Below are positions 33,538 through 35,136 of a stretch of 64,000 bases of DNA, piece by piece; the first letter of the stretch is position 1, and every line of letters begins with the position of its first letter. Position numbers and translations under genes: made by a program. The notes under the pieces were generated by a model, which did no database searches, had not been told where the DNA came from, and saw nothing but the letters and a program-made list of their open reading frames with translations. The DNA comes from Escherichia coli. GTDB lineage: Bacteria; Pseudomonadota; Gammaproteobacteria; Enterobacterales; Enterobacteriaceae. The stretch lies in NCBI RefSeq assembly GCF_024502345.1, contig NZ_JALDNN010000001.1; one strand, 5' to 3'.

Positions 33538-34230
33538 ATGAAAAAAGAAACTCTTGCTGATCGCTTAAACCTAGCGATGGAACAATCTGGAATGTCTCAA
33601 GGCGCTCTTGCAAAGGCGTCTGGCGTAGCTCAACCCACAATCTGGAGACTGACAAGCGGCAACGCTCGCGGCTCAACAAAAATTGTTGAAATAGCTAATG
33701 CATTGGGTGTTCGAACAGAATGGCTCTCATCAGGCATAGGCCCGATGAGAAATGACGGTCAACAATCAGGGAAGCCTGCTGTCAGCCATTCAAAATACTT
33801 CAAGATTGACGTTCTTGATATAGAAGTGAGTGCCGGGCCGGGAGTCATCAACCGTGAGTTTGTAGAAGTTCTACGCTCGGTTGAGTACTCGTTTGACGAT
33901 GCTCGTCACATGTTCGATGGTAGGAAGGCAGAAAATATCCGCATCATTAACGTACGCGGTGACAGCATGTCAGGAACGATCGAACCAGGTGATCTGCTGT
34001 TCGTTGATATCACGGTTAAATCTTTCGACGGTGATGGTATCTATGCGTTTCTGTATGACGACACCGCCCATGTAAAGCGCCTGCAAATGATGAAGGATAA
34101 GCTACTGGTTATCTCTGATAACAAGAGCTACTCACCGTGGGACCCGATCGAGAAAGACGAGATGAACCGGGTATTCATATTCGGTAAGGTTATTGGGAGC
34201 ATGCCGCAGACGTACAGAAAACACGGATAA
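33538..34230 (+). CDS. Phage CI/LexA-like repressor (N-terminal HTH, C-terminal S24 peptidase)
   Basis: MKKETLADRLNLAMEQSGMSQGALAKASGVAQPTIWRL... and ...RGDSMSGTIEPGDLLFVD...AHVKRL (Ser/Lys dyad); ORF track starts at TTG 33502. Confidence 0.85.
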   Translation: MKKETLADRLNLAMEQSGMSQGALAKASGVAQPTIWRLTSGNARGSTKIVEIANALGVRTEWLSSGIGPMRNDGQQSGKPAVSHSKYFKIDVLDIEVSAGPGVINREFVEVLRSVEYSFDDARHMFDGRKAENIRIINVRGDSMSGTIEPGDLLFVDITVKSFDGDGIYAFLYDDTAHVKRLQMMKDKLLVISDNKSYSPWDPIEKDEMNRVFIFGKVIGSMPQTYRKHG

Positions 34231-34312
34231 TCAGCCGCGTGTTGATGAGGCTTTTGGGTAATACGCTGAAGAAAATACCTTATAAAAAATAACATTACGG
34301 GAAAGGCAAAAA

Positions 34313-34576
34313 ATGAGTAATAAAACACTTGTTAAAAAATCAAATAACTGTGTCGATGCATACGCCGACGCGTTTGGCTACTCTTCGTTTGGTGACGGCT
34401 CTCAGCGCCTAGGTTCAATTTCTTTTTTTCATAATGTAACTGAATGGCCTGTTGATGAAAGTGACGATGTTGAGAACATAAAGTACAACATTGCAACCAT
34501 TAGAATGCCCGAAGAATTGATGCTTAAATTGGCTGACTTCATTCGCGACCAGCATGACAAAGCTAAAACAAACTAA
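34313..34576 (+). CDS. Hypothetical small protein co-oriented downstream of repressor
   Basis: 87-aa ORF with SD gaaagg 6 nt upstream; no recognisable domain. Confidence 0.5.
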   Translation: MSNKTLVKKSNNCVDAYADAFGYSSFGDGSQRLGSISFFHNVTEWPVDESDDVENIKYNIATIRMPEELMLKLADFIRDQHDKAKTN

Positions 34577-34753
34577 TCGTAATTAATTATGAAACACGAT
34601 TATTACGAAGCTCCAAACCTAAATGATAAAATTGCAAAGGCGGCAAAATCATTTTGTTTGCACTCCAGTGCGTCTTCCCAGCTAGCAGGTATATCTGGAA
34701 AAAGATGGGACATGCTACAATCAAGTGGTAGCAGTGGGTCTGGGAGTGATAAC

Positions 34754-35032
34754 ATGCCTGAAAAAGTTGCAAAACTGGAGTCCGATGTTGCTCATATCAA
34801 ACGAGACGTTGATGAACTTAAAACAGACGTTAAAGCTATCGACAAAAATATGATAACTATTCTTGCACGTCTGGACTCTATAAAAGAATCCTTAACAAAC
34901 AAGCCATCAAGTGATGCTGTCGATAGAAAGATTTCAGACGCAAAGCTTGCGGTATTGCTTGGTGTTCCAGCAATCATCGCTGCAGGAACAGGACTTTATA
35001 AGCTATCAATGTACTTTTTCTTTAGTGCTTAA
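34754..35032 (+). CDS. Hypothetical coiled-coil protein with C-terminal transmembrane anchor (alternative start 34589)
   Basis: SD gggag 7 nt upstream of ATG 34754; heptad-rich KLESDVAHIKRDVDELKTDVKAIDKNM then hydrophobic LAVLLGVPAIIAAGTGLYKL. Confidence 0.5.
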   Translation: MPEKVAKLESDVAHIKRDVDELKTDVKAIDKNMITILARLDSIKESLTNKPSSDAVDRKISDAKLAVLLGVPAIIAAGTGLYKLSMYFFFSA

Positions 35033-35107
35033 GAAAATGCTCGCACCCTTGCATTAGGTAAAGCGATTTTTCATTCCCCATTACCCTCGCTCTTAACCAA
35101 TCATCTA

Positions 35108-35136
35108 AACCCGGCCACCGTGCCGGGTTTTCTTTT
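35108..35136 (+). terminator. Rho-independent terminator after repressor operon
   Basis: acccggccaccgtgccgggtt hairpin followed by ttcttttg. Confidence 0.65.

Follow-up and report, generated by a model that had tools for sequence, protein, structure and literature searches.

What do two small genes contribute to a prophage that carries them immediately behind the gene for its lysogeny repressor, and what does their recurrence behind other repressors say about that contribution? The question is raised by a 64,000-nucleotide stretch of Escherichia coli DNA (NCBI RefSeq assembly GCF_024502345.1, contig NZ_JALDNN010000001.1; hereafter the window), in which the remnant of a lambdoid prophage retains a CI/LexA-type repressor gene (cI) followed in the same orientation by genes for proteins of 87 and 147 amino acids (aa), here called ORF87 and ORF147. 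The interval between cI and N has been described as a hotspot that holds the rexAB and bstA abortive-infection genes (PMC8585504). A first-pass annotation of the window had assigned the two small genes to the position that lambda uses for rexAB and had suspected a function of benefit to the host. Here, we compare the pair with its relatives in other prophages and with the known exclusion systems. We consider it very probable that the pair is an accessory module expressed in the lysogen; that it has an anti-phage role of any kind, as its position and architecture would allow, we regard as an evenly balanced proposition.

Organization of the Immunity Region

The elements of the locus that matter to the argument are the following (positions in the window).

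33460 to 33530, plus strand: oR-like operator repeat (33460-33509) and pRM-like promoter from a promoter scan
33538 to 34230, plus strand: CI/LexA-type repressor gene, 230 aa, HTH_3 and Peptidase_S24 domains, phrog_4
34313 to 34576, plus strand: ORF87, 87 aa, acidic (pI 4.96), soluble, phrog_4231 family
34589 to 35032, plus strand: ORF147, 147 aa, phrog_3556 family
34736 to 34756, plus strand: putative internal start of ORF147, with a Shine-Dalgarno (SD)-like GGGAG 7 nucleotides (nt) before the ATG at 34754 (Met56), giving a 92-aa core form
35107 to 35140, plus strand: intrinsic terminator closing the cI-ORF87-ORF147 unit, a stem-loop (35107-35130) and then a T-run
35261 to 35310, plus strand: oL-like operator repeat, so named from direct-repeat comparison, its position and the lambda paradigm

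The identity of the first gene is clear. Its 230-aa product matches HTH_3 (3.4e-6) and Peptidase_S24 (1.9e-18) in Pfam and phrog_4, "transcriptional repressor", among the PHROGs (5e-69); RefSeq labels it an XRE-family regulator in identical DNA. The catalytic dyad can be read directly from the sequence as Ser143 (GDSM) and Lys180 (VKRL), and the cleavage-site pair as Ala99-Gly100, so that the N-terminal helix-turn-helix (HTH), the C-terminal S24 peptidase, the Ser/Lys dyad and the Ala-Gly site of a CI/LexA-type phage repressor are all present, as the first-pass annotation had largely recognized. The surroundings are those of such a repressor as well: intact relatives carry a divergent cro-type gene, and repeated operators lie on both sides.

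These operators are represented by a 50-nt direct repeat whose two copies (33460-33509 and 35261-35310) are 74% identical and bracket cI and the pair. Each copy overlaps a sigma-70-like promoter that points rightwards, pRM-like at 33502-33530 (TTGACC-17-TAAATT) and pL-like at 35276-35304 (TTGATA-17-TATTAT), both found by promoter scan. Position and the lambda paradigm suggest that these sites act as operators and promoters. Because the repeat-promoter copies flank both sides, cI and the pair have an oR-like region to their left and an oL-like region to their right, and the layout matches the oR-cI-rexA-rexB-oL order of lambda: the pair lies inside the immunity region, 3' of cI and upstream of oL, exactly where the rexAB comparison had put it. 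The unit is closed, as had also been remarked, by a clean intrinsic terminator with a stem of 9 bp (6 GC pairs) and a loop of 6 nt.

Conservation and Predicted Structure of the Two Proteins

That both small genes are real is indicated by several observations. RefSeq annotates the same three coding sequences in identical DNA, with both small proteins as hypothetical. Ratios of nonsynonymous to synonymous substitution rates (dN/dS), computed against copies about 20% diverged in DNA (L025 and L026; such L numbers designate the compared loci) and against copies in P22-like prophages, are 0.05-0.09 for ORF87, which is thus under purifying selection, and the 87-aa gene that had been noticed after the repressor is a conserved one. 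For ORF147, likewise under purifying selection, the ratio is 0.23-0.42 overall, 0.14 in its core and 0.4-0.57 in its N-terminal extension. The small genes have a GC content of 39-40%, compared to 47% for cI and 51% for the window, and this low value is the usual signature of imported cargo (a moron).

ORF87 belongs to phrog_4231, a family of unassigned function (7e-54), which forms eight clusters at 50% identity, with lengths of 92-99 aa, among 1.84 billion representative proteins. An AlphaFold model built from a 17-sequence alignment has three long beta-strands and a C-terminal helix (predicted local distance difference test, pLDDT, 82). Its nearest folds are small, dimer-forming sheet-plus-helix structures with 3-20% sequence identity, and its Foldseek neighbors include DUF3467 (E ~0.05); the likeness to DUF3467-type proteins would appear to be one of fold only. 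A profile search of PDB sequences with ORF87 gave no match.

ORF147 belongs to phrog_3556, also of unassigned function (1.7e-58). It consists of an N-terminal extension with a Gly/Ser linker (residues 1-55), a heptad-like, coiled-coil helix (56-103), an NKPSS break and a transmembrane (TM) helix at about 115-139, the last corresponding to the single C-terminal hydrophobic segment (115-139) in the hydropathy profile. In an alignment of 22 relatives, some 90 residues at the C-terminal end form a conserved block, in which the heptad-like helix is followed by a (K/N)KPS break and then by the shared sequence DAVDKKISDAKLAVLLGVPAIIAxGTG.YK; a Gly/Ser-rich linker and a variable N-terminal region lie upstream of this core. 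Because positive charges occur N-terminal to the TM helix and only about eight residues follow it, the protein is predicted to be tail-anchored in the inner membrane with its N-terminus inside. The family was found only in the Enterobacterales (E. coli, Serratia, Pantoea, Erwinia, Rahnella, Klebsiella, and Enterobacter), and a PDB profile search with ORF147 gave generic coiled coils only.

The first-pass reader had recognized no motif in either protein, and the searches bear this out. There was no match to a Pfam, NCBIfam or PADLOC family beyond coiled-coil noise, and PADLOC-DB v2, searched with both proteins and with the alternative partner proteins described below, returned no defence model, only generic coiled-coil noise at E>=0.0005. 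Homology to structural or lysis proteins, which would have spoken against an exclusion function, was likewise absent. Literature searches with the protein accessions, ECO26_0580 and the PHROG identifiers found no papers, and the accessions of the pair are absent from the DefensePredictor supplements.

The pair is present in 197-249 of 5,426 complete E. coli genomes (~4%), many of them Shiga toxin-producing E. coli (STEC) of serogroup O26. Among 50,697 phage genomes searched by tblastn, it was found only in Salmonella phage UPF_BP1, with partial matches to the core in three Enterobacter phages. The cassette thus appears to be mostly a feature of prophages.

A Conserved Putative Internal Start in ORF147

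The second gene had been described as encoding about 92 aa, or alternatively 147 aa. These are not exclusive possibilities: the 147-aa frame is conserved and coding, and the start of the 92-aa form is conserved as well. In all 12 second genes tested, the core begins with a start codon (ATG, or GTG in L025 and also in L026, which was outside the 12-gene test) that is preceded at 4-13 nt by an SD-like motif of the GGAG/GGAGG/AGGAGG type. Such motifs precede 11% of all codons in these genes and, among the in-frame ATG or GTG codons elsewhere, 6 of 66; for seven independent lineages the chance probability of the pattern is ~2e-7. The sequence signal for this internal start, which the earlier description does not mention, is a strong one. 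Most of the 5' start codons have no SD-like motif, and they adjoin the stop codon upstream or overlap with it, which suggests that translation of the long form is coupled to that of ORF87.

The idea that the N-terminal 55 codons are a mere 5' leader was rejected, as their frame is open in every lineage; between L003 and L006, the extension has a proportion of nonsynonymous differences (pN) of 0.22 and of synonymous differences (pS) of 0.88. Probably, then, one open reading frame (ORF) makes both a long and a short polypeptide, the latter translated from the internal site. Gene callers often report the short form only (P0010, P0014, P0051, and others). In two loci, the Serratia L005 (3384-3587) and L052, the long frame is broken and the short form (135 aa), with its internal start, is intact, so that nature provides variants with the short form only.

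Two-product genes of this sort have precedents. Holin/antiholin genes have dual starts. The sieB gene of P22 makes two peptides and is switched by the sas antisense RNA, which constitutes a self-immunity switch (PMC12197685).

Recurrence behind Different Repressors

It had been proposed to look for the pair beside repressors in other prophages, where its absence would have spoken against the interpretation, and it was indeed found there. In about 45 related loci, an ORF87 homologue stands behind a CI-type repressor or Mnt, with a few copies in a tail region, and, except in two damaged loci, it is followed by a protein with a coiled coil and a C-terminal membrane helix. A blind scan of IMG/VR gave 32 loci, 18 behind CI, 10 behind Mnt and 4 in the tail region (the upstream genes of L038 and L058 were taken from separate locus comparisons). 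In 30 of these, the ORF87 homologue is followed by a coiled-coil gene of 128-207 aa, with a junction of -53 to +12 nt; hydropathy indicates a C-terminal TM segment in 24 of the intact pairs and a weaker hydrophobic tail in six of the UPF_BP1 type, and in the remaining two loci the second gene is disrupted. Where loci were examined individually, the ORF87 homologue was always the first member of a tight pair (junctions -35 to +12 nt). The loci of the scan are phylogenetically non-independent and represent roughly 7-9 lineages.

The repressors themselves are diverse. The upstream S24 CI-type repressors belong to at least three immunity types (those of the window and L001, of L025, and of L019 and L054), L001 being the largely intact lambdoid prophage of E. 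coli 2014C-3307, with late, replication and recombination genes present. In L021/22, the pair lies behind an HTH repressor of the CI_repr type without an S24 domain. In the Mnt context, the immI region of P22-like prophages (Salmonella phage UPF_BP1, E. coli, Serratia, Leclercia, and others), the start of ORF87 overlaps the mnt stop by 4-8 nt. There is also a fourth context, that of an opposite-strand moron among the siphovirus tail genes of Raoultella/Klebsiella-type prophages. Conversely, some phages have the cI of the window and other cargo behind it; Escherichia phage PhiR30_1 (L002 6961-8315), for example, has a cI about 98% identical in DNA, with unannotated ORFs of 141 and 310 aa in the slot. 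The slot after cI is a variable moron or swap site. That the pair follows two unrelated lysogeny repressors, in two slots known for exclusion genes, argues for its expression in the lysogen. Two P22-like prophages of Serratia marcescens have a further gene after the pair (L004 6957-7262 and L005 4044-4349); it encodes a 101-aa protein of phrog_19844, a family of unassigned function, with a signal-peptide-like N-terminus, and some lineages may therefore hold a three-gene cassette.

The Mnt loci raise the question of whether the pair could be an entry block, in which the membrane protein and ORF87 would prevent DNA translocation by a superinfecting phage without killing the cell, as do SieA or HK97 gp15. 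On the P22 map, the interval from arc to gene 16 contains mnt, orf59a, a terminator, PsieA and sieA, all sharing one orientation; the homologous pairs of P22-like prophages occupy the place of orf59a and sieA and have thus apparently replaced them. They lie exactly in the sieA place, between mnt and gene 16 (a test that does not apply to the lambdoid copy in the window), sieA itself is found in only 22 of 66 P22-like phages (PMC10883804), so that others may hold substitutes, and ORF147 is predicted to be in the inner membrane. Nonetheless, we think a simple entry block improbable. The pair also occurs in lambdoid and siphovirus-tail settings and is hence not tied to P22-type ejection proteins, no similarity to SieA emerged from PHROG, PADLOC or a reading of the motifs, and the window-type ORF147 has nearly no periplasmic part.

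The neighborhoods bear equally on the possibility that the lysogen uses the pair for something other than defence, whether the timing of induction or lysis (holin/antiholin-like or XhlA-like), a RexA-like tuning of the genetic switch, or envelope physiology or virulence. With its coiled coil, C-terminal TM helix and putative dual starts, ORF147 recalls holin/antiholin genes and XhlA, and it has weak matches to two "hemolysin" families (phrog_1193 and phrog_937, 1e-4 and 1e-3). RexA also takes part in the switch between lysis and lysogeny (bioRxiv 10.1101/2021.04.19.439022; PMC11077077), and the pair is common in O26 STEC. In the loci examined, however, its neighbors are repressors, kil/gam or ejection-protein genes, no holin, endolysin or spanin gene adjoins it, and it would be transcribed with repressors and not with late genes. 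Pfam XhlA, tried as a candidate, is not significant for the ORF147 family (E 0.11 for ORF147 itself; one of 22 family members at E<=0.1, with 0.0069). Non-defence functions of this kind we hold to be possible, if rather unlikely.

Exchange of Modules within the Pair

The two genes are not always found with the same partners. The ORF147 core also stands behind unrelated first genes, namely those of a family of 147/153-aa proteins comprising Kle147 (Klebsiella, directly after cI) and Pan153 (Pantoea), and Rah93, of 93 aa, in Rahnella. Reciprocally, ORF87 precedes unrelated cores: the window, UPF_BP1 and Leclercia types and a "SREEIDAKL...NKAE" type, whose periplasmic tail is rich in Pro and Gln (phrog_5820). 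UPF_BP1 and the window illustrate how this may come about, since their ORF87 proteins are 95% identical, their partners are 55% identical over residues 1-75 and only 27% identical over 76-147. Such conservation of ORF87 and of the N-terminal part of its partner, with divergence of the C-terminal half, implies that recombination swaps the membrane module.

A [YF]-Y-[EAG] motif occurs in the first 5-17 residues of 10-11 of 13 ORF87-linked partners, whatever their core, and in none of three genes linked to other partners, a pattern found post hoc. Together with the pattern of swapping, it suggests that the N-terminal extension recognizes the product of the first gene. In the Klebsiella aerogenes loci (L015-L017, 4300-5273), two cI alleles are accompanied by a 39-aa hydrophobic ORF, the 147-aa protein, which is distantly related to the Pantoea 153-aa protein (phrog_5893), and an ORF147-type core, whose upstream in-frame extension (MTRPLYSV...GNGGGGG) had been overlooked by the gene caller.

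On a larger scale, the pair itself has been swapped horizontally, and frequently, among unrelated prophage backbones and repressor alleles. This behavior fits cargo better than a core regulatory gene and so counts further against the non-defence functions considered above.

A Partner-Controlled Membrane Effector?

The reading that we tentatively prefer, while judging it somewhat short of probable, is that of a partner-controlled membrane effector conferring an exclusion of the abortive-infection type. A two-gene moron operon would ride on the transcript of the lysogeny repressor, with which it is presumably cotranscribed, and would thus be made in the lysogen. ORF87 would be a soluble beta3-alpha protein and ORF147 a tail-anchored, cytoplasmic coiled coil with one TM helix, made in two forms, a coupled long one with a disordered, partner-specific N-extension and the 92-aa core from the internal site. 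The core could oligomerize in the inner membrane and damage or gate it; ORF87 and the N-extension together might restrain it until the arrival of a phage is sensed, or protect the lytic growth of the prophage's own genome. A regulated effector is preferred here to a passive block of entry because ORF147 has a soluble partner and hardly any periplasmic part, because partners can be swapped and because two isoforms are predicted; known entry blockers are single proteins, and the translational coupling points in the same direction.

Two points bear on this preference. An AlphaFold run on a fused ORF87-linker-ORF147 chain, with a paired alignment of eight rows, gave a pLDDT of 53 and a predicted TM-score (pTM) of 0.28 and was uninformative on contact between the proteins. 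More generally, the pair has no phenotype and no homology to its name, which is the main argument against all functional readings.

A more ambitious version, which must be regarded as speculative and on balance unlikely, is that of a modular "repressor-rider" family of abortive-infection systems in Enterobacterales prophages. In these, an exchangeable sensor or adaptor (ORF87, Kle147/Pan153 or Rah93) would dock with the N-extended isoform, and the ratio or state of the isoforms would decide among silence, killing and self-immunity. Were it correct, the family would embody the logic of SieB/Esc built from unrelated parts.

If the pair does exclude phages, it would enlarge the set of defences known from prophages by a compact system of two genes (~720 bp), which PADLOC v2 lacks. 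Its anatomy, with swappable partners, an N-extension and an internal start, bears on how a minimal membrane effector is silenced and how a prophage avoids acting on itself; to our knowledge, the question of self-immunity in RexAB is still open after decades. If it does not, the pair would still rank with the more widespread of those cargo modules that are linked to repressors and have no known role.

The Prophage Remnant and What Its Persistence Means

The copy in the window lies in a prophage that has lost nearly everything else. Two further features of the remnant are relevant.

33384 to 33427, minus strand: cro remnant, the first 44 nt only (in L001, a cro-like HTH gene at 11801-12028, minus strand)
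35582 to 35788, plus strand: kil, FtsZ-inhibitor family, intact, 3' of the pL-like promoter (NCBIfam NF008465 at 3.7e-16)

Positions 33384-36050 of the window correspond to 11985-14651 of L001 with 100% identity over 2,667 bp. In L001, the order is Q-region ... P, O, cII-like, cro (minus strand) / cI, 87 aa, 147 aa (plus strand) / kil, gam, bet, exo, and kil is annotated as a cell-division inhibitor; in the window, 44 nt of cro, cI, the pair, the pL-like promoter, an intact kil and part of gam are left. No complete E. coli genome in the collection searched shares the decayed arrangement. Such complete identity to an intact prophage means that the decay is recent.

The first-pass annotation had argued that survival of the cassette through deletions and insertion sequence (IS) insertions suggests selection. 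We find this argument weak; the decay is too recent for survival to be informative. Moreover, with pL-kil intact, loss of cI is presumably lethal or costly, so that cI is selected and the pair, lying between cI and pL, can hitch-hike. The case for a function thus rests on the dN/dS values and the repeated independent association with repressors elsewhere, and not on survival in the window. The presence of an intact kil and a pL-like promoter in a gutted prophage with its cro deleted is an observation in its own right: by its linkage with kil, cI may make the host "addicted" to its product, and the fragment could have persisted for this reason.

It is here that an addiction module of the toxin-antitoxin (TA) kind has to be weighed, in which ORF147 would be a membrane toxin, the small upstream protein its antidote, and the stabilization of the prophage or its remnant in the chromosome their main effect. 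A small acidic first gene coupled tightly to a gene for a membrane protein has the look of such a module, and the pair does persist in a decayed prophage. This persistence is, however, accounted for by the cI-kil linkage and the recent decay, no TA family in Pfam, NCBIfam or PADLOC is matched, and ORF87 is much more constrained than the putative toxin. We therefore consider a TA module very unlikely, with the qualification that TA behavior and the abortive-infection function preferred above are mutually compatible.

The remnant occupies the DLP12-type prophage site of E. coli/Shigella. On one side, the window contains nfrB, nfrA, a ybcH-like gene, a gene for an EnvY-like AraC regulator, and IS5-family, IS2-like and IS1 elements; on the other are an integrase fragment, argU, a tRNA-Arg(tct) gene (36672-36748, minus strand), fimZ and a second IS1. 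The IS cluster comprises an IS5-family transposase gene (28865-29833), IS2-like orfA/orfB (30332-31566) and the IS1 copies at 32253-33020 and 37692-38459. The left IS1 abuts a C-terminal remnant of a tail-fibre-assembly gene (33192-33359, minus strand), and almost nothing separates that remnant from the cro stub. The interval between the EnvY-like gene and the prophage lacks ompT; with the density of IS elements, this suggests that the background is Shigella-like or an IS-rich E. coli. To the right, a deletion fuses the cut-off gam (ending at ~36050) to a fragment of the DUF1317 region (36049-36171, equal to L001 16254-16376), which is followed by a 63-aa ORF without an NCBIfam match (36176-36367) and by the C-terminal 92 aa of the integrase (36378-36656), adjoining argU.

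The nin region of L001 (7057-8952) encodes a 631-aa NACHT-domain protein between ren and a P22AR-domain gene. It is probably a defence gene of the Avs/NLR type, and the same prophage would thus have a second cargo site.

Comparison with Known Systems

The closest parallel in layout is that with RexA/RexB of lambda, a cytoplasmic sensor and a membrane ion channel that together bring about abortive infection, excluding phages such as T4 rII while the membrane potential is lost. Both pairs occupy the same slot after cI between oL and oR, are closed by a terminator, consist of two genes of which the first encodes a soluble and the second a membrane protein, and are presumably made from the repressor promoter in lysogens. 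The proteins themselves differ. RexA has about 280 aa and RexB four TM segments, whereas the soluble partner of the cassette has 87 aa and its coiled-coil protein a single C-terminal segment (115-139), not a four-TM channel, in addition to a putative internal start and a partner-specific N-extension; no Rex family appeared among the PHROG, PADLOC, NCBIfam or Pfam matches of the pair.

The second parallel is one of design. The sieB gene is a single gene in the pL operon, downstream of N/gene 24. SieB/Esc of P22 and lambda is a prophage-expressed, membrane abortive-infection gene with two polypeptides, of which the shorter modulates the longer (PMC12197685), and the conserved internal SD motif and ATG of the cassette would predict a similar two-product design; the SieB family was absent from the PHROG and Pfam matches, and no antisense RNA was noticed at the cassette, although no search aimed at one was made. 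SieA of P22, the inner-membrane blocker of DNA injection, shares with the pair its position in P22-like prophages and an inner-membrane product. It is, however, a single protein that crosses the membrane several times and bears a FxRYPxEAxxFNK motif on its cytoplasmic side (PMC10883804), and direct reading of ORF147 and its homologues found no such motif and a single TM segment, nor was there a SieA match among the PHROGs. BstA of the Salmonella prophage BTP1 likewise lies directly after prophage repressors, presumably sharing their promoter, and is a single protein that acts at phage DNA replication sites and has a DNA-based self-immunity element, aba (PMC8585504). In sequence and architecture it is unrelated to the cassette.

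The 92-aa core, taken by itself, resembles XhlA (PF10779) and CCDC90/DUF1640-like proteins, which have a coiled coil of ~50 residues and one C-terminal TM helix; residues 56-147 have the XhlA architecture (coiled coil and TM helix, ~70-90 aa), and a type-2 partner gave a weak match to PF07798. Genes for XhlA belong to lysis cassettes, together with those for holin and endolysin, whereas the pair lies beside repressors and combines the core with an ORF87-type partner and an N-extension.

By these comparisons the pair appears to be unrelated to RexAB, SieA, SieB, BstA or any PADLOC model. It is best described as a repressor-slot prophage moron and a candidate exclusion system, of a kind already known, whose parts and design are nevertheless new.

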